Source of the DNA: Syntrophaceae bacterium
Lineage (GTDB): Bacteria; Desulfobacterota; Syntrophia; Syntrophales; PHBD01
Assembly: GCA_013177825.1 (NCBI GenBank)
Contig: JABLXX010000005.1
Coordinates: 359,734 to 423,733 of the forward strand
Direction of reading: 5' to 3'
DNA length: 64,000 nt
Positions 31,711 through 56,918 of the stretch are shown one piece after another (the stretch's first letter is position 1; the number at the start of each line of letters is the position of its first letter). Below the pieces are notes generated by a model. It made no database searches, was not told the DNA's origin, and saw nothing but the letters and a program-made list of their open reading frames with translations. The translations under genes and the position numbers were made by a program.

Positions 31711-31784
31711 TGGGGGATCGTCTAGTGGTAGGACACAAGATTCTGGATCTTGCTACCGAGGTTCGAATCCTTGTCCCCCAGCCA
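31711..31784 (+). tRNA. tRNA-Gln (anticodon CUG), CCA encoded
   Basis: Folded by hand. The acceptor stem is TGGGGGA/TCCCCCA. The anticodon stem is CAAGA/TCTTG with loop TTCTGGA. The T-arm contains GGTTCGAATCC. Confidence 0.9.
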
Positions 31785-31787
31785 TAT

Positions 31788-31862
31788 GGTCCCATCGTCT
31801 AGTGGTTAGGACGCTGGCCTCTCACGCCGGAAGCCGGGGTTCAACTCCCCGTGGGACTACCA
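31788..31862 (+). tRNA. tRNA-Glu (anticodon CUC), CCA encoded
   Basis: Folded by hand. The acceptor stem is GGTCCCA/TGGGACT (G1-U72). The anticodon stem is CTGGC/GCCGG with loop CTCTCAC. The T-arm contains GGTTCAACTCC. Confidence 0.9.
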
Positions 31863-31872
31863 GTATAGAAAA

Positions 31873-31903
31873 GGGGTTACGGCACACGCCGTAACCCTTT
31901 TTT
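31873..31903 (+). terminator. Rho-independent terminator after the tRNA pair
   Basis: The stem is GGGGTTACGGC / GCCGTAACCC with an ACAC loop, followed by TTTTTT. Confidence 0.7.
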
Positions 31904-32024
31904 GGGGAGCATCAGCAAGATACCGATGTTTCGCTGGAGGTTTCGGGTCTACCCATAACTCTGAAAGCCGTTTTTTGCCGTCCGGAGATCAATCAGTGGA
32001 TTCAGGGGTATCTTCAGAAAAGGG

Positions 32025-33506
32025 TCAGGTTCTGTGCTGCAGGCAATATTCGCGGCGCAAAAACAACACACCATCTTTGCCATCATAAGCAAGGCACCAG
32101 TCGGGCTCAGCAGCAAGCAGAACACGGATTTTGGAGTCCGATCTCACCAGGATCATATCATGGGGATATTTCTCCAGAAAATCCCTCCAGTTATCCCGCG
32201 CAAAAATGAAGTTGAAATATTCAGTGGATACGGAATCTCGGTATACCGTTTCATAACGCCCGTCCATGCTGACCCTGTTATCGGGATACAATGTCCAGAT
32301 CAGGTACTCACCCCACTCAAACCAGGGCAGAATATTCCCTTTCAGGTTGTTCTTCTGAATCATTTCAACGGCCCCCACAGGGTAGTAGACTCGATAGATT
32401 CGGAGCTCCAGCGGGGACCCGACGATGAATTTGAATAATGAAGATCCAACAGTCCAGGACGTGATAACAATGATCAGCATCAGACCGATCATCCGAAAGC
32501 GTGAATAGCGCTTGATGATTTTCGGGTCACTTTTTAAAGCTTCCCAGAATTCCTTCATGATAACGGGGGAAAAAGCTGCAAACGCCAGTGCGAAGAAAAC
32601 CGTGTTGCGAATACTCAGCAAACCCATGATCAAAGTTGCTGAAAGAACTATTATCGTTGTCAAATCGCGCTTCGGATACCAGAAAACGAGGGGTACGGAC
32701 AGAAGAAAAACGATCGTGTATTGTACACCGTAACTCCTGTATTCATCAGAGAAAACAGTTGCGAAGACATTCTGCCACTCGCCGATTTCCGGACGCGGCA
32801 TCAGAACGGCACCAGCCATGTACCTCCAGTATTCGCAACCATACGGGTTGACAAGGGTTATCAGAGCAGCGGCGAGAAGAATCGCTGCATATGGATAATA
32901 TTTTCGACCGGAAACGGCTTCGCCCACGGTGTAAATGCCGATCATACTCAGACCAACCACAAACCCGCCATGAAGGTTACACCAGAGCAGTTCAACGGGT
33001 ACCAGCCACCATAAATATTTCCAATGCTTGCCTGCCCTGGCCTGATCAAGAAGATACAAGGTTAAAACAAAGAATAAATAGGTAAATACTTGCGCCCGAA
33101 CGGGCGAATAGCCGGCTTTGATCAAATTGCCGGCCACTATCAGGGCCAGAAACACGAAAAATGGAGTCGCTTTCCTCCTGACAGCGGTTACACAGACAAG
33201 ACCAACCGTCACCATCCCCAGCAGGTACTTCAAAAGCTGCAAACCCGCGGCGCCAAAATTCTTATAAATGGGGAAAAAGATAATGCCGGTCAGCCATTCA
33301 TGGTAAACCCAGAGGGGCTTTGTTGGAGTATATGAAAAGACATCCTGGTAGGGGAAAGCACCCGTTTCCCAGAACAGACGGCCGAATGCGAGATATCCCC
33401 ACAGATCCCAATCGATGGTGTTGTTACAAAAAATGCCAAGAAAAAAGGCGGCAATCCCTGAGTAAACGAGCAGCGAACGTACGTTGTAATTCGCTTTCGC
33501 AATCAT
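32025..33506 (-). CDS. Polytopic membrane protein, possible GT-C-type glycosyltransferase (function uncertain)
   Basis: 493 aa with at least 11 hydrophobic segments and a C-terminal soluble domain. The first loop reads DWDLWGYLAFGRLFWETGAFPYQDVFSYTP. GC content is lower than the flanks (line 32581-32640 hand count 28/60). Confidence 0.4.
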   Translation of the reverse strand: MIAKANYNVRSLLVYSGIAAFFLGIFCNNTIDWDLWGYLAFGRLFWETGAFPYQDVFSYTPTKPLWVYHEWLTGIIFFPIYKNFGAAGLQLLKYLLGMVTVGLVCVTAVRRKATPFFVFLALIVAGNLIKAGYSPVRAQVFTYLFFVLTLYLLDQARAGKHWKYLWWLVPVELLWCNLHGGFVVGLSMIGIYTVGEAVSGRKYYPYAAILLAAALITLVNPYGCEYWRYMAGAVLMPRPEIGEWQNVFATVFSDEYRSYGVQYTIVFLLSVPLVFWYPKRDLTTIIVLSATLIMGLLSIRNTVFFALAFAAFSPVIMKEFWEALKSDPKIIKRYSRFRMIGLMLIIVITSWTVGSSLFKFIVGSPLELRIYRVYYPVGAVEMIQKNNLKGNILPWFEWGEYLIWTLYPDNRVSMDGRYETVYRDSVSTEYFNFIFARDNWRDFLEKYPHDMILVRSDSKIRVLLAAEPDWCLAYDGKDGVLFLRREYCLQHRT

Positions 33507-48013: not shown

Positions 48014-48979
48014 TCAACGCGCCAAATAGAAAAGCCGGTCCCCTTCTTCGTCCTCTGCAACAAGCCCTTCGTCCACGAGTTCCACCAGATGCACGTAGGT
48101 CTCGTTGAGAGCCAGGAACTGATCGAAGTCCGGAAGGTCCGGACCGAACAGATCCGCCGAGACCGCCACCGCCTGCCGGCGTCCCTTCCGGACCGACGCC
48201 AGGACGAGGCTCTTCCTCTCTTCATGGTGGAGAAGGATCTCCGCCACCCGCTTCTGCAGATCGTTGAAGGGCTCTCCGTGGGCCGGCCAGATCCGCTGGA
48301 CCGGCAGGGTCGAGATCTCCCGGAGGGAGGCCAGAAAACTCCGGAGGACCCGAAAGTCCCGGTCGAACAGGTCGGGGCTCAGGTTGGGGGTAATGTCCGG
48401 CAGGACATGGTCCCCCGAAAGCAGGAGGCCCTCCTCCGGGAAAAAGAAAACCACATGTCCCCGGGTATGCCCCGGCGTCTGATACACGCGGAACGGCCGT
48501 CCGTATACTGCATGATTTTCCTGCAGGGCGGGGCAGGATTCGGGATCGAAAGGTACCTGGGAGTTGCGGAAATGTACTAGGAGCTTCGACATGATGGCGA
48601 GGGCCTTCTCCGGCAGGCCGTGGACGGCATAGAAATCCCGGAGAACGAGGGCGAGTCGCTCCTGGTTCGCGTTCTCCCGGATGTAGAGCCGGCTGGCCTC
48701 GGAAAAGAGGATTTCCGCCCCCGATTCACGGCGGATCCGCCCCGCCATGCCGAGGTGATCGGTATGATGGTGGCTGATGAAGATGCGTTCCACGTCCCGG
48801 ACCGAACAGCCAAGGTCGCTCAGGGAGCGCTCCAGTTTGGCGAAAGCCTCGGGCGAATTCATCCCCGTGTCGAACAGGGTCACCCGTCCCTCGTGAAGAA
48901 GTGCGTAGATGTGGACGTGCTGCAGCCGAAAGGGCATGGGGAGCGTGATGCGGTAGAAGCGGTCGGCGATTTCCTGCAT
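48014..48979 (-). CDS. MBL-fold metallo-hydrolase with C-terminal winged-helix-like tail
   Basis: Contains the HHHTDH motif (ISHHHTDHLG), TPGHTRGH and later His/Asp ligands. The start was chosen at MQEIADRFY. Confidence 0.8.
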   Translation of the reverse strand: MQEIADRFYRITLPMPFRLQHVHIYALLHEGRVTLFDTGMNSPEAFAKLERSLSDLGCSVRDVERIFISHHHTDHLGMAGRIRRESGAEILFSEASRLYIRENANQERLALVLRDFYAVHGLPEKALAIMSKLLVHFRNSQVPFDPESCPALQENHAVYGRPFRVYQTPGHTRGHVVFFFPEEGLLLSGDHVLPDITPNLSPDLFDRDFRVLRSFLASLREISTLPVQRIWPAHGEPFNDLQKRVAEILLHHEERKSLVLASVRKGRRQAVAVSADLFGPDLPDFDQFLALNETYVHLVELVDEGLVAEDEEGDRLFYLAR

Positions 48980-49331
48980 GATCGTAGCGGGCTCCTTGTG
49001 CGGGTCCGGTCCCGGACCCCGGAATTGTGGCTGGGTGCGATCTTTCCCCGGCCGGGGGAAAGGCACCGTCGTTTCTCGCCCATCGTCCGCTCCTTGTCAA
49101 GAACGCGATGCACCCCATGACGAGGATTCCCGTGTCCCGGGTGCCAAACGAAGGACGAGACGGAAACGGGCAGGTGCAAGTCGGCGGATGCGGAAGGAAA
49201 CCCCGCGCTTCTTTCCGCATCAAGGCCCTTCCCCATGCCCGGCGGCGTCTCCGCCGGAAAAGGAGACTTGATCTTTCCGGGAAATCCGATACATTACGCC
49301 ACGAAAAAAACACTCGGAGCGGAACGAAAAA

Positions 49332-51645: not shown

Positions 51646-53253
51646 CTATGCGCTGCCTGCCGGAGACGGAGGTCGTTCATCCGCCACCTCCCCGGCCTCG
51701 TTCTCCTCTCCGTTCCTCACTGACCTCCCGTTTTCAACACTGGCGGCGTATTTAAGAGTACGGGTTGCGCGATCGACCGTGCTGACCTCGGGCAGGTCCT
51801 TTCCCGTCGCTGCACCAAACTCCTTGAACCTCCGAGCGCTCACGAGAACACGGCTCTCCAGGGAACCGACAGCCTCGTTGTAGGCACCTACCGCCCGTTC
51901 CAGCCCCGCGCGGAGGCCGTCAAAGTGGCCGGCCAATGTGAGCAGCCGGTCGTAGAGCGTCTTCCCCATGTCGCTGATGGCCTGGGCGTTCTCGGCGATC
52001 CGCTCCTGCCTCCACCCGTAGGCGACGGCTCGGAGGAGGGCGATCAGGGTGGTCGGTGTCGCCAGGATCACCCCTTTGTCGACCCCGAACTCGATCAGCG
52101 ACGGATCCTGCTCGAGAGCGGCGCTGAAGAACGTCTCCCCGGGAAGGAACAGGACGACAAACTCCGGTGACGGGGAGACATGGGCGGAATAGGTCTTGGC
52201 AGAGAGCTTGGTCAGATGAACGCGGATCTGCTGGGCATGGGCCTTCAGCCGCTCGACCCGGACTGCCTCGTCCTTCGCCTCCAGCGCATCCAGGTATGCC
52301 TGGAGAGGCGCCTTCGAATCGACGACGATGCTCCGGTTACTCGGAAGTCGGACGATCAGGTCGGGACGGGCCGAACCGTCCTCCGTCGCAAAGGTTTCCT
52401 GCTGGTTGAAATCGCAATGTTCCACCATGCCTGCCAGTTCGACGACCCGCTGGAGCTGGATCTCTCCCCAGCGGCCCCGGACGGCCGGCGCCCGGAGCGC
52501 CTTCACGAGGTTCGACGTCTCCGCCGTAAGCTGCGACTGGGCGGAGGCCATCGAACGGATCTGCTCCAGGAGGCCCGAGTAAGCGGAGGTCCGCTCCTTC
52601 TCGATTTCCTGGATCTTGACGTCCACTTTCTCCAGGGACTCCCGGATCGGGTTCACCAGGGCCTCAACGGCCTTACTCCGCGCCTCCAGATCACCCCGGG
52701 CCGCCTCCTGGTATTTTTCCAGGGATGCCTTCGCCAGTTCCAGAAACGACTGGTTGTTGCTCTTGAGCGCTTCCGCCGACAGGGCCTGGAAGGCATCTCC
52801 CAGCTTCCGGCGGGCCTCGTCCAGGAGGGCGATTTTCTCGGCCGCCCCTTTTCGCTCCTCCTCGGCGCGGGCCTCCACCTCGGCGATCCGCGCCTGCAAA
52901 GCGGCCATGTCCATCCGCAGGCGGTCCGACTCCACCTCCCTGGTCCGGAGGGCATCCTCCAGTTGAGGAATGCGGGCGTTTCTCTCCTCGGCGGCAGCCC
53001 GGGCGTTCGATTCGGCTTTTTGCTCATCCCTGATCCGAGCCAGGGATTCTCCCGACCGCTCGGCGGCTTCCTTCAGATCCCGGATCTGGAAATCTTTCGC
53101 CGCCAGGCGCTCCGTCAGGACGGCCTTCTCGCCATCCCAGACGGCCGCCGAATCCGCATCGGTGGAGGCCTTCTTCCCCAGGATCATCCGGGCGATCACC
53201 GCCCCGATCAGAACGCCGACGGCAAGGAAAACCGGATACATCCACACTTCCAT
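51646..53253 (-). CDS. rmuC: DNA recombination protein RmuC
   Basis: An N-terminal TM is followed by a long coiled coil. The RmuC nuclease-like core includes [21 protein letters not shown] and [10 protein letters not shown]. The start at 53253 has AAGGAGAAG upstream. Confidence 0.85.
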
Positions 53254-53336: not shown

Positions 53337-54329
53337 TCAGGGTTGCACGGAATGGACCCGGATCTTCCCCGCCCCCCAGGCTGTCTCCCGACCCAGGTGG
53401 GTCCGCTCGCAAAAACGAAGATAGGGCAGGAACTCTCCGAGGGGACCTTCATAGGTCACTTCGCCGACAACCCTCCCGGAATGCGCGGATGAATCGGGCC
53501 GTCGGCCCGGACGTTCCTCCCCCCTCCGCCGGAGGCTCGACTTCATCACCCGCACGCCGGCTGCCCTGGAGATGAGCCCAGGTGCGTCGAGTGACAGTTG
53601 TCCTTTCCCGTAGGTCCTGTTGAGTGTGAGGATCCGGCCCAGGATGGACTGCACCAGGACGGGGAAGGACAGGACGTCCTCCCGGCTCGACCCGGCGATT
53701 CCGACGAGCGGCGAGACCAGGTGCACGGTGACGGCGGTAACCGGGGACGACAACGCCTTTTCCGCATCCGCCAGGAGTCCTGCCCGCAGGTCTTCGGCGA
53801 AATCGCCTTCCCGGAGACTACGCTCGCGGCCGTGCCAGATGATTTCGTCGCCTGCCACGACGGAAGCGACGACAAAACGCGAGCGGCCCTTCTCCATTCG
53901 GCGGCCGATTCCCAGCCGTCCCATCTCTTCGAAGGTCTGGATGAAATGGAGAATGTGTTCGTTGCTTCTACCGAAGAGGATCAATCCGAAATCGAAAGGG
54001 TCCTCGCGCCGGAACGAGGTCCCGGTTGTTTCCGGCGGTTCGATGACGAAGGGGGAAGGGATGGTCGTGGAGCGGATCTTTCCCTTGGGGAACGGGGGCA
54101 GCAGATGGTGATTCGCCGGAGGCGGGCTCGAGAACAGGAGAGGGTAAAGGCAGCGCCGGTCAAGGATGCAGCCGGCACAGTCCTTCTGTTTCATCGCACA
54201 GACGACATGCCGGAGAGCCAGGCCGAAGGTGTTTCGGAAGATCGATCCCTTGGATTCGGGAAGGACGGCATCGTCCAGGAGTGTTCCGTGGAACCGGTAG
54301 TATCCGCATAGCATCGGGAAGGTCTCCAT
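53337..54329 (-). CDS. Cas6-family RAMP-like protein (PF10040/DUF2276-type pattern), orphan
   Basis: The N-terminal pattern is [44 protein letters not shown]. This matches, from memory, the LPxYKGSTLRGAFGxAL..C..C..C..C.Y..F pattern of that Cas6 family. A C-terminal Gly-rich loop ([13 protein letters not shown]) is present. This has not been verified by search. Confidence 0.45.
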
Positions 54330-54433
54330 GTATCCCGCAGCCGCGGGCTCAGAGGTTTCAATCGGAAAAGAAAAGGCCGAGAAGCAGGCGCTGCACTACC
54401 ACTTATACCGCGTGAAAGCAATCGTTCCACCGC

Positions 54434-55513
54434 TTACAGGGATATGTCAGCCTTCGATAGACCAAGCGCCGCCAGCGATTTTTCGTACGGTGGCCGGGCA
54501 ATGCCGGCCTCGGTGACAATCGCGGTGATCAGGCGGGCAGGCGTGACGTCGAAAGCGGGGTTGTAGACGGCGATGCCCTCCGGGGCGATTCTTCTTCCGG
54601 CGAGGATGGTCACTTCCGAGGAATCCCGCTCCTCGATGGGGATGGCATCCCCTGTGGCCATGGTGAGGTCGATCGTCGAGAGAGGGGCGGCGATGTAAAA
54701 CGGAATCCCGTGGGCCTCCGCCAGGACGGCCACGCCGTAAGTACCGATCTTGTTCGCCGCATCGCCGTTGGCGGCAATACGGTCGGCCCCGGTGATAACC
54801 TTCCGGACCTTTCCCTGCTTCATGAGGAATGCCGCCATGTTGTCGGTGATCAGAACGGCGGGGATGCCTTCTTTCGTCAATTCCCATGCGGTGAGCCTCG
54901 CTCCCTGCAGGACGGGCCGCGTCTCGTCCACATACACGGTCAGTCTTTTCCCTTCCCCATAAGCTGCCCGGATCACCCCGAGGGCGGTCCCGTAACCGGC
55001 CGTCGCCAGCGCCCCGGCATTGCAGTGGGTAAGGACGCCGTCCCCGTCTTCCAGAAGGACCCGGCCATGGAGTCCCATAGCCCGGTTCGCTGCAATATCC
55101 GCATCGTGGATGTGGACGGCTTCCCGAAGCAGGACCTCCCTGAGGGCAGCCAGGCGCTCCGCCCAGGAAACGCCGGATTGATCGGCCAGAGCGGTGCGAA
55201 AACTTTTTTTCATCCGCTCGATGGCCCAAAACAGATTGACCGCCGTCGGCCGGGTTTTCGCAAAGGTTTTGCAGATTCCCTCAAAAGACGCCCGGAGTTC
55301 CTCCTCTGTGGCGGCGTCGGTGTTCCGCACACCCAGGGCGATGCCCAGGGCGGCGGCCACCCCGATGGCCGGCGCGCCCCGGACGGTGAGGTCCCGGATG
55401 GCCTCCGCAACATCCTCCCAGCGCTCGATGGCGAGGTACCGCTCCTCCAGGGGAAGCGCTTTCTGGTCGATCATCCCGACCGTTCCGTTCTGCCAGAAAA
55501 CCGTTCGGATCAT
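54434..55513 (-). CDS. mtnA: S-methyl-5-thioribose-1-phosphate isomerase (eIF-2B alpha/beta/delta family)
   Basis: The N-terminus is MIRTVFWQNGTVGMIDQKALP. Contains VRGAPAIGVAAA, HCNAGALAT and VGADRIAANGD-like motifs. Confidence 0.85.
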   Translation of the reverse strand: MIRTVFWQNGTVGMIDQKALPLEERYLAIERWEDVAEAIRDLTVRGAPAIGVAAALGIALGVRNTDAATEEELRASFEGICKTFAKTRPTAVNLFWAIERMKKSFRTALADQSGVSWAERLAALREVLLREAVHIHDADIAANRAMGLHGRVLLEDGDGVLTHCNAGALATAGYGTALGVIRAAYGEGKRLTVYVDETRPVLQGARLTAWELTKEGIPAVLITDNMAAFLMKQGKVRKVITGADRIAANGDAANKIGTYGVAVLAEAHGIPFYIAAPLSTIDLTMATGDAIPIEERDSSEVTILAGRRIAPEGIAVYNPAFDVTPARLITAIVTEAGIARPPYEKSLAALGLSKADISL

Positions 55514-55562
55514 TTCTTCCTCTTCCAGGGATGCAACCCCGTTTTTCCCGTGACGCTCCCTA

Positions 55563-56918
55563 TTACCGCCGGGATATCGCGTGTATCTGAAACGCATCCA
55601 TCATCACCCGATACTGGAGAATCGCCCGGTTCCGCTTCTGCACGGCGCCATTGTAGGCATTGGCAAGATGATGGTTTACCACCCTTTCCCAGTGATTCCG
55701 GGCATCTTCAGGCATATTCGGGAGATCGCTCATGTCGTATTGGGACGAGAAAACCTGCCGGAACAGATTCGGCAGATCCTCTTTCGCACGGGTCACGGCG
55801 GCCTGGGGGTCGATATCCTGCGGATTGCCGCCGATCTGTTCGAATACCCAGCGTTCGTAACGGTTCCGGTCCAGGGAGCCGTCAGGGGCCGAGATGAGCT
55901 GGTAGCTGTACCGAGGATTTGTCGTGGAATCGCTGAAGCGGACGGTTCCTTTCTCATCGAGATAACAGAACGTCTGCTTCCCTCCCGCAACGCCGCTCGC
56001 CGCGGTCCCTCCCGCCAGGGATACCGGGGTACCGGCGGCGGCGGCCAGCCGGGTCACCCGCTCGCCGGAGATGCAGAAGTTCAGATTCTGCCCGCCGCTG
56101 AACTGAAGGAACGCGACGCCGATGACCTCTCCCCGGAGATTCACCACGGGACTCCCGCTGGAGCCAGGCGAAATGGGCGCGGTGATCTGCAGGACCCGGC
56201 CCCGTTCCTCCGTCTCCCGGATGGCCGAAACGATTCCGTCCGAGACGGTCTGCTCGAGTCCGAAAGGACTTCCCACTACGATCACCCGCTCCCCGACTTC
56301 CGGGAGGGCCGCTGTCACAGCCAGGGGAAGGCTCTCGGCCCAGGGCATGGTCACCGACAGCAGCGCAAGATCGCCGGCGACATCCCGGGCCGTGATTCCC
56401 GCTACGGGATAGACTTTCCCGGCGGCGGTCTTGATCTGCGCGGAGTGGGCTGCTCGCAGTACGTGCAGGTTGGTGACGACCTGGCCGGAGGCGCCATGGA
56501 AAAAACCGCTTCCCCGGCCGAGGTTCTCCCGCCGCTCATTATATGTATAGATCGCCACGACGGACGGACCGATTTTCCGGTAGAGAGCCGAAACGTCCTG
56601 GAGCGCAGTTCCCGTTGGCGCCGGAGTTGGCGGTGCCGCGACGGGAACTCCCGCTTCGGGTCCCGGGACGACGGGAGCCGGGGGCGACAACTGATCCCGG
56701 CCTGCCCAATAGAGAATGCCAACGACCGCAAGAACGAAAACAGGGAGACCAACCAGAACGAAACGGTTGGAGAAGAGATTCCGGAGATCGGTCCACAACT
56801 CTCCGAGGCGGCGGCGGTAAACCAGCAGGAGGACTCCCAGGAGGACGGCCGGGAACAACAGGATATTGAAGAGTGTCTTCACGGTCCTTCCCCCGGCTGA
56901 GAGAACCGGTTCCCGCAC
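55563..56918 (-). CDS. Membrane-anchored trypsin-like (S1) serine protease with uncharacterised C-terminal domain
   Basis: An N-terminal TM is present. The catalytic His context is VVTNLHVL and the Ser context is SPGSSGSPVVN. No PDZ domain is evident. The C-terminal ~140 aa have no motif I recognise. Confidence 0.7.
   Translation of the reverse strand: MREPVLSAGGRTVKTLFNILLFPAVLLGVLLLVYRRRLGELWTDLRNLFSNRFVLVGLPVFVLAVVGILYWAGRDQLSPPAPVVPGPEAGVPVAAPPTPAPTGTALQDVSALYRKIGPSVVAIYTYNERRENLGRGSGFFHGASGQVVTNLHVLRAAHSAQIKTAAGKVYPVAGITARDVAGDLALLSVTMPWAESLPLAVTAALPEVGERVIVVGSPFGLEQTVSDGIVSAIRETEERGRVLQITAPISPGSSGSPVVNLRGEVIGVAFLQFSGGQNLNFCISGERVTRLAAAAGTPVSLAGGTAASGVAGGKQTFCYLDEKGTVRFSDSTTNPRYSYQLISAPDGSLDRNRYERWVFEQIGGNPQDIDPQAAVTRAKEDLPNLFRQVFSSQYDMSDLPNMPEDARNHWERVVNHHLANAYNGAVQKRNRAILQYRVMMDAFQIHAISRR

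Follow-up and report, generated by a model that had tools for sequence, protein, structure and literature searches.

Cas6 proteins and the Syntrophaceae locus

Canonical Cas6 cleavage leaves an 8-nt 5′ handle, the cut lying 8 nt upstream of the spacer. Here we describe a Cas6-family gene in a housekeeping context, found in a 64,000-nt stretch of DNA from Syntrophaceae bacterium (assembly GCA_013177825.1, contig JABLXX010000005.1, positions 359,734 to 423,733). The whole of this stretch is called the window, and the gene lies on its minus strand at 53337–54329, between mtnA and rmuC. Our best explanation, to which we assign a probability of about one half, is that the gene encodes an exapted, Cas6-derived RNA-binding or RNA-processing protein.

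The DUF2276/PF10040/COG5551 proteins have been known as a Cas6 family since 2011–2013 (PMC3150331, PMC3936711). CRISPR-linked Cas6 proteins of the Cys-cluster type (PF27225 plus PF10040; COG5551/DUF2276) are normally encoded by the first gene of type III-A (csm) or III-B (cmr) operons, as exemplified by protein P0014 in locus L004 and P0012 in locus L008. The window protein resembles them, at 38–43% identity, in domain architecture, length, four-Cys motif, K-G-S-x-F-R loop, PxVIEPP strand and G-rich loop scaffold, but differs by the absence of about 20 residues that are invariant among them and by an additional, conserved insertion. Whereas the CRISPR-linked genes adjoin Cas_NE0113, cas10, csm2-5 or cmr1-3 and arrays with repeats ending in GGGATTG[A/C]GAC, the window gene has none of these beside it.

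Among solved structures, the best match to the model of the window protein is Cas6 of S. solfataricus (4ILL, 4ILM, 3ZFV; E=2.4e-12, TM score 0.5–0.6). This is a stand-alone enzyme whose active site is made of several basic residues near the G-rich loop; catalysis relies on a network of N-terminal lysines, Arg231 and Arg269 beside Ser268 of the G-rich loop, and not on a histidine (PMC3652601). Identity to it is only 12–14%; it has no Cys cluster, is proven to cleave CRISPR repeats and comes from a CRISPR-bearing genome. By sequence profile, the closest solved structure is the Cas6 domain of Cas6-RT-Cas1 (6DD5, 7KFT), which is fused to a reverse transcriptase (RT) and Cas1 in type III loci. The fold match is strong but the sequence match is not significant (E=0.12–0.29). 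The domain has the TPxRL, Y-x-N and G-rich loop motifs in common with the Cys-cluster family, and its TPxRL and Y-S/T-N motifs are exactly those lost by the solo clade, that is, by the window protein and its orthologues.

Cas proteins have repeatedly been taken up for non-defence roles; in most known cases the recruited part was Cas4 or an entire effector module. The idea of a solo Cas6 has its precedent in solo-Cas4, a Cas family encoded off cas loci with presumed non-CRISPR roles (PMC5704561); it has a PD-(D/E)xK fold and is widespread in archaea, whereas the solo Cas6 clade is a single narrow cluster in one bacterial order. Besides solo-Cas4, described exaptations of CRISPR components include a Cas3-less type I-E derivative beside a STAND NTPase in Streptomyces, and HRAMP (PMC5704561, PMC8730458). 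A full-text literature search for solo, orphan and stand-alone Cas6 found no vertically inherited solo Cas6 clade, which is no proof of novelty.

The window gene encodes a Cas6 of the Cys-cluster family

The program-made list of open reading frames (ORFs) holds a 330-aa frame at 53337–54329 (minus strand), with the sequence quoted in the initial annotation, where it had been read as a Cas6-family RAMP-like gene of the type III-associated Cys-cluster PF10040/DUF2276 type. Both parts of that reading were borne out. The Pfam model PF10040 (CRISPR_Cas6) matches residues 203–323 with E=5e-10 (40.4 bits, the cut-off being 25), the PADLOC Cas6 profile PDLC01477 matches over the full length with E=5.5e-67, and both PF27225 (AF_1859_N) and PF10040 are precomputed on all homologues; the NCBIfam search of the protein gave no match. 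A metagenome-assembled genome (MAG) of Syntrophaceae encodes the identical protein (100%), NPU85366.1, on a 427-kb contig; NCBI labels it as a Cas6 that processes precursor CRISPR RNA (pre-crRNA).

An AlphaFold2 model built from 21 sequences (mean predicted local distance difference test score, pLDDT, 83.9; predicted template modelling score, pTM, 0.84) consists of two beta-alpha-beta-beta-alpha-beta halves, giving two tandem RRM (ferredoxin-like) domains like those of solved Cas6 proteins. In a Foldseek search against the PDB the top 33 matches were all Cas6 chains, with S. solfataricus 4ILL (E=2.4e-12) followed by 3ZFV, the Cas6-RT-Cas1 domain (6DD5, 7KFT), T. thermophilus 4C8Y and 4C9D, and P. 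furiosus 3PKM. Because profiles, model and Foldseek matches all lead to Cas6, the ORF is identified as a Cas6 of the Cys-cluster PF10040 family, and the III-A and III-B context of its distant relatives agrees with this.

The true coding sequence is likely 53337–54314 (minus strand; 325 aa), with an MLCG... start at ATG 54314, since the ATG of the listed METF start is absent from four orthologous loci (L009, L053, L054, L012) and a GGAGA Shine–Dalgarno sequence lies 8 nt ahead of 54314. Two residue numberings are used below, that of the listed 330-aa form and that of the 325-aa form, in which the alignment columns were compared. The gene and its protein features are as follows.

53337–54329, minus strand: solo Cas6-family ORF, listed as 330 aa (PF10040, PADLOC Cas6, start-codon conservation)
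53745–54314, minus strand: N-terminal RRM domain, from AlphaFold secondary structure, with the LPxxKGSxFR loop (K27, G28, S29, R32; 330-aa numbering)
54150–54200, minus strand: four-cysteine cluster C44-X6-C51-X2-C54-X5-C60 (330-aa numbering), each Cys 99–100% conserved in 97 family members
54072–54125, minus strand: solo-clade-specific insertion, residues 69–86, ending in [FY]P[KR]GKIR, from alignments
53361–53723, minus strand: C-terminal RRM domain (PF10040 match, residues 203–323), from Pfam and the column comparison
53472–53531, minus strand: degenerate Arg-rich loop replacing W-x-D-W-x-R-Y-S-N-R-Q, from alignments, variable within the clade
53364–53399, minus strand: G-rich loop with glycines and His kept, from alignments

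Solo cas6 holds a conserved position under purifying selection

The immediate neighbours of the gene are the following.

54434–55513, minus strand: mtnA, S-methyl-5-thioribose-1-phosphate isomerase, upstream of cas6 (TIGR00512, E=1.2e-133; orthologues 359 aa)
51646–53253, minus strand: rmuC, 535 aa (PF02646, E=2e-102), start set by orthologues

The ORF list gives mtnA as 54434–55597, which we shortened to the orthologue length of 359 aa. For rmuC, orthologues place the start at 53253 and not at the listed TTG at 53412; since rmuC starts there, it does not overlap cas6, and an 83-nt spacer separates the two. The placement of the gene between mtnA and rmuC, as first annotated, is supported by the family matches of both neighbours.

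Solo relatives with 91, 88, 87, 76, 66 and 62% identity to the window protein occur in MAGs labelled Syntrophales, Syntrophaceae and Deltaproteobacteria and in unlabelled metagenome contigs. The shared gene order is gatC-gatA-gatB, S1 protease, mtnA, cas6, rmuC, epimerase/DUF1731 and HAD hydrolase; in the window, all genes from gatA through the HAD hydrolase are on the minus strand. Conservation of the arrangement, which the initial annotation had put up for checking, extends down to 62% identity: mtnA-cas6-rmuC-epimerase-HAD is kept in 8/8 independent contig sets (62–100% identity) with readable neighbours, on contigs that include ones of 727 kb, 637 kb and 4,065,614 bp (GCA_053578375.1, contig JBHKXH010000001.1, with the solo cas6 at 787,123–788,097). 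Other genomes bearing the solo cas6 are GCA_002841865.1, GCA_964578535.1 and GCA_964396205.1.

Reading frames are intact in every solo orthologue. By the Nei–Gojobori method, the pairwise ratio of nonsynonymous to synonymous substitutions (dN/dS) of cas6 is 0.10–0.35 at dS up to about 1.0; the same method gives 0.10–0.28 for rmuC, 0.15–0.19 for the epimerase gene, 0.19–0.22 for mtnA and 0.06–0.08 for gatB. The G+C content of cas6 (GC 62.8%; at third codon positions, GC3, 74.8%) matches that of the neighbouring genes. Taken together, conserved synteny, dN/dS and GC/GC3 indicate that the gene is functional, old in its lineage and vertically inherited, neither a recent stray nor a relic. A viral origin was considered and rejected, with a single partial match, at a contig end, in IMG/VR.

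The nine solo proteins form a single clade in a neighbour-joining distance tree (95 sequences), and this clade combines common descent, a place outside cas loci, a fixed housekeeping context, purifying selection and host-like GC/GC3. Its stem measures 0.196 vs. a median internal branch of 0.014, and its root-to-tip distance is 0.75 vs. 0.64. Mean identity of solo to CRISPR-linked proteins is 38%, compared with 53% among the CRISPR-linked proteins themselves. An exhaustive HMMER search of 1.84 billion representatives returned 3889 family members at E≤1e-3; the whole solo clade forms one 50%-identity cluster there, and the next match falls to 43% identity.

Solo proteins replaced family-invariant residues and gained an insertion

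Alignment columns were compared between 88 CRISPR-linked and nine solo sequences. Residues kept in the solo clade (325-aa numbering) are C39, C46, C49 and C55 of the Cys cluster, P19, K22, G23, S24, F26 and R27, the PxVIEPP strand, H306, and G308, G314 and G316. In the LPxxKGSxFR loop, K is found in 98% and S and R in 100% of the CRISPR-linked proteins; K and R are present in 9/9 and G and S in 8/9 of the solo ones.

The four cysteines follow helix 1 in the window protein as C-X6-C-X2-C-X5-C, a spacing identical to that of the [4Fe-4S] cluster loop of endonuclease III/MutY, and the family profile aligns this stretch to endonuclease III residues 203–227 (RQVCTWTRPKCGKCILRERC). Confidence of the AlphaFold2 model is lowest at the cluster. 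Judged from this spacing, the loop is a probable Fe-S site; no account of an Fe-S cluster in Cas6 came up in a literature search.

Twenty-two columns that are 88–100% conserved in CRISPR-linked proteins are replaced in the solo clade, 18 of them in 9/9 sequences, R222, R226 and S270 in 8/9 and D265 in 7/9. In 325-aa numbering they include G28, E62, H87, Y123, Y126, R204, K206, N209, H218, R222, R226, Y244, W263, D265, W266, Y269, S270, Q273, M277, K309 and F313. The window protein itself has, in its C-terminal RRM domain (330-aa numbering), R209V, K211I, H223P, R227Q, R231G, W268R, W271E, Y274P, S275G, Q278P, K314R and F318W. The motifs affected are TPLRxK, HxxxRxxxRR and WxDWxRYSNRQ of the C-terminal RRM domain and PHP/YFIY of the N-terminal one. 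The lost residues are mostly basic or aromatic, and they map to the end of beta-1′, the start of alpha-1′, the hairpin and loop before beta-3′ and the G-rich loop of the C-terminal RRM domain. The region of motif loss has low model confidence (pLDDT <50 at residues 272–283, in the Arg-rich loop) and single positions may be misaligned there; the motif loss as a whole is robust. At the same time, a Pro/His/Lys-rich insertion (residues 69–86), absent from the CRISPR-linked relatives, is almost invariant in the solo clade.

The G-rich loop is defined as GhGxxxxxGhG with at least one Lys or Arg (PMC3936711). Its basic residue is K in 100% of the CRISPR-linked proteins and R, A, G, D or E across the solo clade; the window protein keeps the glycines and one Arg, and three solo orthologues have no basic residue in the loop. 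By analogy with S. solfataricus Cas6, the solo clade appears to have rewritten much of its probable RNA-contact and catalytic surface. A long stem, old invariants lost, new ones gained and purifying selection afterwards make up the classic signature of a change of function.

The same losses, together with the one variable, low-confidence loop, could be expected of a decaying relic of a lost type III locus, whose frame is still open and whose protein is functionless. We consider this very improbable: no orthologue has a broken frame, dN/dS stays at 0.10–0.35 while dS reaches about 1, and besides strong conservation of the N-terminal domain there is a new insertion that is itself conserved. The Shine–Dalgarno sequence and an upstream block are conserved as well. 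The selection analysis, in particular, largely refutes it.

No CRISPR array or other cas gene seen near the solo loci

The statement of the initial annotation that the 64 kb contain no CRISPR array or other cas gene was upheld by every scan applied. Neither Tandem Repeats Finder (TRF), a direct-repeat scan nor Rfam detected a CRISPR array in the window, the Rfam scan returning two tRNAs only. Pfam scans of the large ORFs across the whole 64 kb gave no other cas genes; they identified glycosyltransferases, TPR proteins, a secretin/GspE/GspF/PilM cluster, fmt, rsmB, a DEAD/DSHCT helicase, feoAB, cinA, recA, alaS, an SDR protein, a metallo-beta-lactamase (MBL)-fold protein, gatCAB, a histone-deacetylase-family protein and tatC.

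For solitary repeats, we built a covariance model from five CRISPR repeats adjoining Cas6 relatives, which have a common 3′ end, GGGATTG[A/C]GAC, and a 3–4-bp stem (family repeat example, GUAGGAGACCUUGACCUGAUUACGAAGGGAUUGCGAC). The model recovers true repeats at E of 1e-7 to 1e-8; its best hit in the window had E=2.1 and those in the orthologous solo loci E of 3 or worse. A CRISPR array or solitary repeat in the window was rejected on these four negative searches. Around seven other solo loci (±10 kb), direct-repeat and repeat-model scans brought no array to notice, nor did precomputed Pfam calls or a search with a small seed set point to a cas gene. Among the 120 listed of 2527 matches in a Cas10 profile search, none was traceable to solo-bearing contigs.

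Most distant relatives lie near cas-family genes

A scan of JGI metagenomes yielded 80 loci, two of which are further solo orthologues and 78 of which encode relatives at ≤43% identity. Using seed proteins from annotated loci, we found cas-family genes near 65 of these 78 (Cas_NE0113 in 48, Cas10 in 29, Csm2/4/5 modules in 15 and Cmr2/3 modules in 10), and mtnA or rmuC near none of the 78. For 11 of the 13 that gave no cas match, the sequence beyond cas6 on the downstream side is <1 kb long; in another (L111), a CRISPR array lies just before the gene. Two loci considered as cas-free, L071 and L117, were rejected as such, both being type III-B. In related Syntrophales, type III loci have their own cas6 as first gene.

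The next-closest relatives (P0158, P0161 and P0162, at 39–43% identity) are likewise without the WxDWxRYSNRQ motif and the lysine of the G-rich loop. The P0161 cluster comes from Syntrophales MAGs (HOK06644.1, HOM07030.1, HPC01063.1; contigs of 65–78 kb), and P0158 from a 2-kb contig with no informative neighbours and no cas genes visible. These three may be older solo orthologues.

Some further features of the CRISPR-linked loci were observed. In 48 of the 78 (L004-L007, L015, L055-L131), cas6 is directly followed by Cas_NE0113 (PF09623), often with overlapping stop and start codons. In L015 the cas6-NE0113 pair is parted from cas10 by vapBC and other genes; since it stands apart there, the pair behaves as a mobile two-gene module. 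AEP-TOTE (PF22548) genes lie beside the csm operon in L008 (9662–11232), beside cas1-cas2 in L014 (3515–5128) and in L132, a locus with Cmr and cas1/cas2; that of L008 combines TPR repeats with a Mu_Gam/Gp157-TOTE domain and is preceded by MJ1673/MJ1674-like genes. The array upstream of cas6 in L111 (925–1659) has four regular repeats with a 69-nt period and two more 248 and 244 nt apart, which suggests insertions or unusually long spacers.

These relatives bear on the main rival explanation, a serious one that we nevertheless hold less likely than exaptation, namely that the solo protein is a trans-acting pre-crRNA endoribonuclease for arrays or effector modules that lie elsewhere in the genome and have no cas6 of their own. 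'Standalone Cas6' is a review's term for such enzymes, NCBI names the window protein a pre-crRNA-processing Cas6, and type III-A is common in Syntrophales among the Cas10 matches listed. The fold, Cys cluster, K-G-S-x-F-R loop, His311 and G-rich glycines have been kept, the L015 pair shows cas6 separated from cas10 by unrelated genes, and Cas6 of types I-A and III-B is only loosely associated with effector complexes and may supply several (PMC3652601). Yet the solo proteins have other residues at about 20 positions that III-A- and III-B-linked relatives hold constant in spite of their different repeats, the basic residue of the G-rich loop varies even inside the clade (R/A/G/D/E), and the type III loci of related Syntrophales have a cas6 already. 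CRISPR-cas loci turn over quickly, whereas this housekeeping position has stayed fixed over a dS of about 1. The scans of the 64 kb and of ±10 kb around seven solo loci also speak against this explanation, the latter scans consisting of repeat searches plus a look at cas genes through precomputed Pfam calls or a small seed set. The initial annotation had left domesticated and trans-acting Cas6 side by side; synteny down to 62% identity, purifying selection and the lost invariants now make the balance lean to a domesticated one.

The leader region carries conserved elements

Two elements precede the gene.

54387–54421, minus strand: conserved block upstream of cas6, TTGCTTTC ... GTGGTAGTGCAGCGCC, invariant in six solo loci
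54334–54347, minus strand: GC hairpin CCCGC-NNNN-GCGGG in the 5′ leader, 6 nt before GGAGA, stem kept in six loci

The six solo loci that share both the block and the hairpin stem reach down to 62% protein identity. The TTGCTTTC ... GTGGTAGTGCAGCGCC block looks promoter-like (TTGCTT, 17 nt, TGG-TAGTGC), and a consensus promoter scan found no sigma-70-type site in it. The hairpin loop varies (GGCT, GATT, CGCC) and no compensatory change was seen in the six loci; 26 such hairpins occur by chance in the window. The two may be a promoter and a leader element, and we treat them as leads only. The flanking intergenic regions showed no structured RNA, with folding z-scores of +1.45 and +0.24, no better than shuffled sequences.

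A candidate repeat 3′ handle, CCGATTGAAAC at 54355–54365 (minus strand), was rejected: it is not conserved in L009, L053, L054, L133 and L012, nor is it scored by the repeat model. It includes ATTGAAAC (54355–54362, minus strand), the canonical 8-nt crRNA 5′ handle. Only two cas6 leaders contain ATTGAAAC, those of the window and HGW-Deltaproteobacteria-19, and it occurs three times in the window by chance. Its presence in the leader is most likely due to chance.

With the hairpin and the probable Fe-S loop in mind, we also considered a CRISPR-independent, structure-specific nucleic-acid binder that would work with RmuC or on its own leader hairpin, in genome maintenance or gene regulation. We regard this version as unlikely.

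Proximity of cas6 to rmuC

The adjacency to rmuC had been noted as something that may or may not be meaningful. It is constant in the solo lineage, with cas6 and rmuC 83–114 nt apart on the same strand in every solo locus, but no Cas6 was found within ±6 kb of rmuC in any of 36 rmuC loci from other phyla. An independent Cas6-RmuC association was rejected on these 36 loci. An RmuC scan of genome contigs returned one close genome, HGW-Deltaproteobacteria-19, and no sister taxa, so that no empty mtnA-rmuC junction was seen in it. In the window, a terminator scan predicted no intrinsic terminator on the minus strand between mtnA, cas6 and rmuC. As cas6 and rmuC share a strand, lie 83 nt apart and have no predicted terminator between them, they are probably co-transcribed.

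This adjacency, with no terminator in between in the window, would suit a Cas6-RmuC partnership, in which a structure-specific binder passes hairpins to the RmuC nuclease for genome maintenance or defence; RmuC-type domains do occur in defence systems, and the window rmuC matches PADLOC RTasRmuC with E=2e-58. We find such a partnership quite unlikely, given the 36 rmuC loci devoid of Cas6 and the typical full-length housekeeping form of the window rmuC (PF02646, E=2e-102). A single ancestral insertion accounts for the adjacency equally well.

A model for the origin of the solo Cas6

Exaptation, our preferred reading, would have begun with a Cys-cluster Cas6 of the type that normally heads III-A or III-B cas operons. 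An ancestor of Syntrophaceae or Syntrophales would have fixed one copy between mtnA and rmuC, which has been inherited vertically since. The protein would have retained the two-RRM fold, the four-Cys loop, the K-G-S-x-F-R loop and the glycine scaffold of the G-rich loop, while about 20 family-invariant residues, mostly basic and aromatic ones of the C-terminal RRM domain together with the lysine of the G-rich loop, were replaced and an insertion of its own was gained. It would then no longer recognise the family CRISPR repeat, and would still bind RNA and act on a cellular, non-CRISPR substrate. The gene is probably expressed together with rmuC.

Several points weigh against this reading. Type III Cas6 proteins reportedly act as stand-alone enzymes, and 'standalone Cas6' is said to be the term used for them in a review. 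A CRISPR-cas locus may lie elsewhere in the genome, our scans having covered the window and up to ±10 kb around the other loci. No candidate non-CRISPR substrate was found, and both flanking intergenic regions fold no better than shuffled ones. That the lost residues bound the repeat is suggested by their position and chemistry, and both the active sites and the RNA contacts of Cas6 are well known for their plasticity (PMC3652601); owing to this plasticity, wholesale residue turnover may mean another repeat type and not an exit from CRISPR. The loose tie of I-A and III-B Cas6 to effector complexes, several of which one enzyme could serve, points the same way (PMC3652601). Finally, neighbour joining is a distance method, and the basal position of the solo clade is possibly a long-branch effect.

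Other observations in the window

An MBL-fold gene at 48014–49066 (minus strand) has a weak precomputed match to the Anti-Pycsar protein Apyc1 in several orthologous loci, which probably reflects just the common metallo-beta-lactamase fold.

Between 1 and 18 kb the window GC is mostly 38–47% (53% at 8–10 kb), over genes for glycosyltransferases, a PMT_2 mannosyltransferase and three TPR proteins; from 18 to 28 kb, with a sigma-54 activator and GspF/GspE/AAA_22/secretin/PilM-like genes, it is about 54%, and in the rest of the window mostly 59–65% (50% at 32–34 kb). Positions 1–28000 are probably a horizontally acquired surface-glycan or pilus island. Two adjacent tRNA genes (31711–31781 and 31788–31859) are followed by a 493-aa ORF at 32025–33506 (minus strand) with no Pfam match and a GC dip to 50%; the region 31711–33506 may be an integration hotspot.

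Significance of a solo Cas6

Should the genome prove to have a CRISPR locus that lacks cas6, the window gene would be an ordinary remote cas6 with unusual sequence drift. If the exaptation reading is true, it would be a clean natural case of a re-tooled CRISPR RNA-processing enzyme, one inherited vertically within a housekeeping gene string that has kept its fold and its probable Fe-S site while the surface in contact with RNA was rewritten. The system is a tractable test case, comprising one small protein, a closed 4.07-Mb genome and clear predictions on how RNA specificity evolves in the RAMP fold. For the family as a whole, the solo Cas6 could reveal the role of the four-Cys cluster in its Cas6 subfamily.

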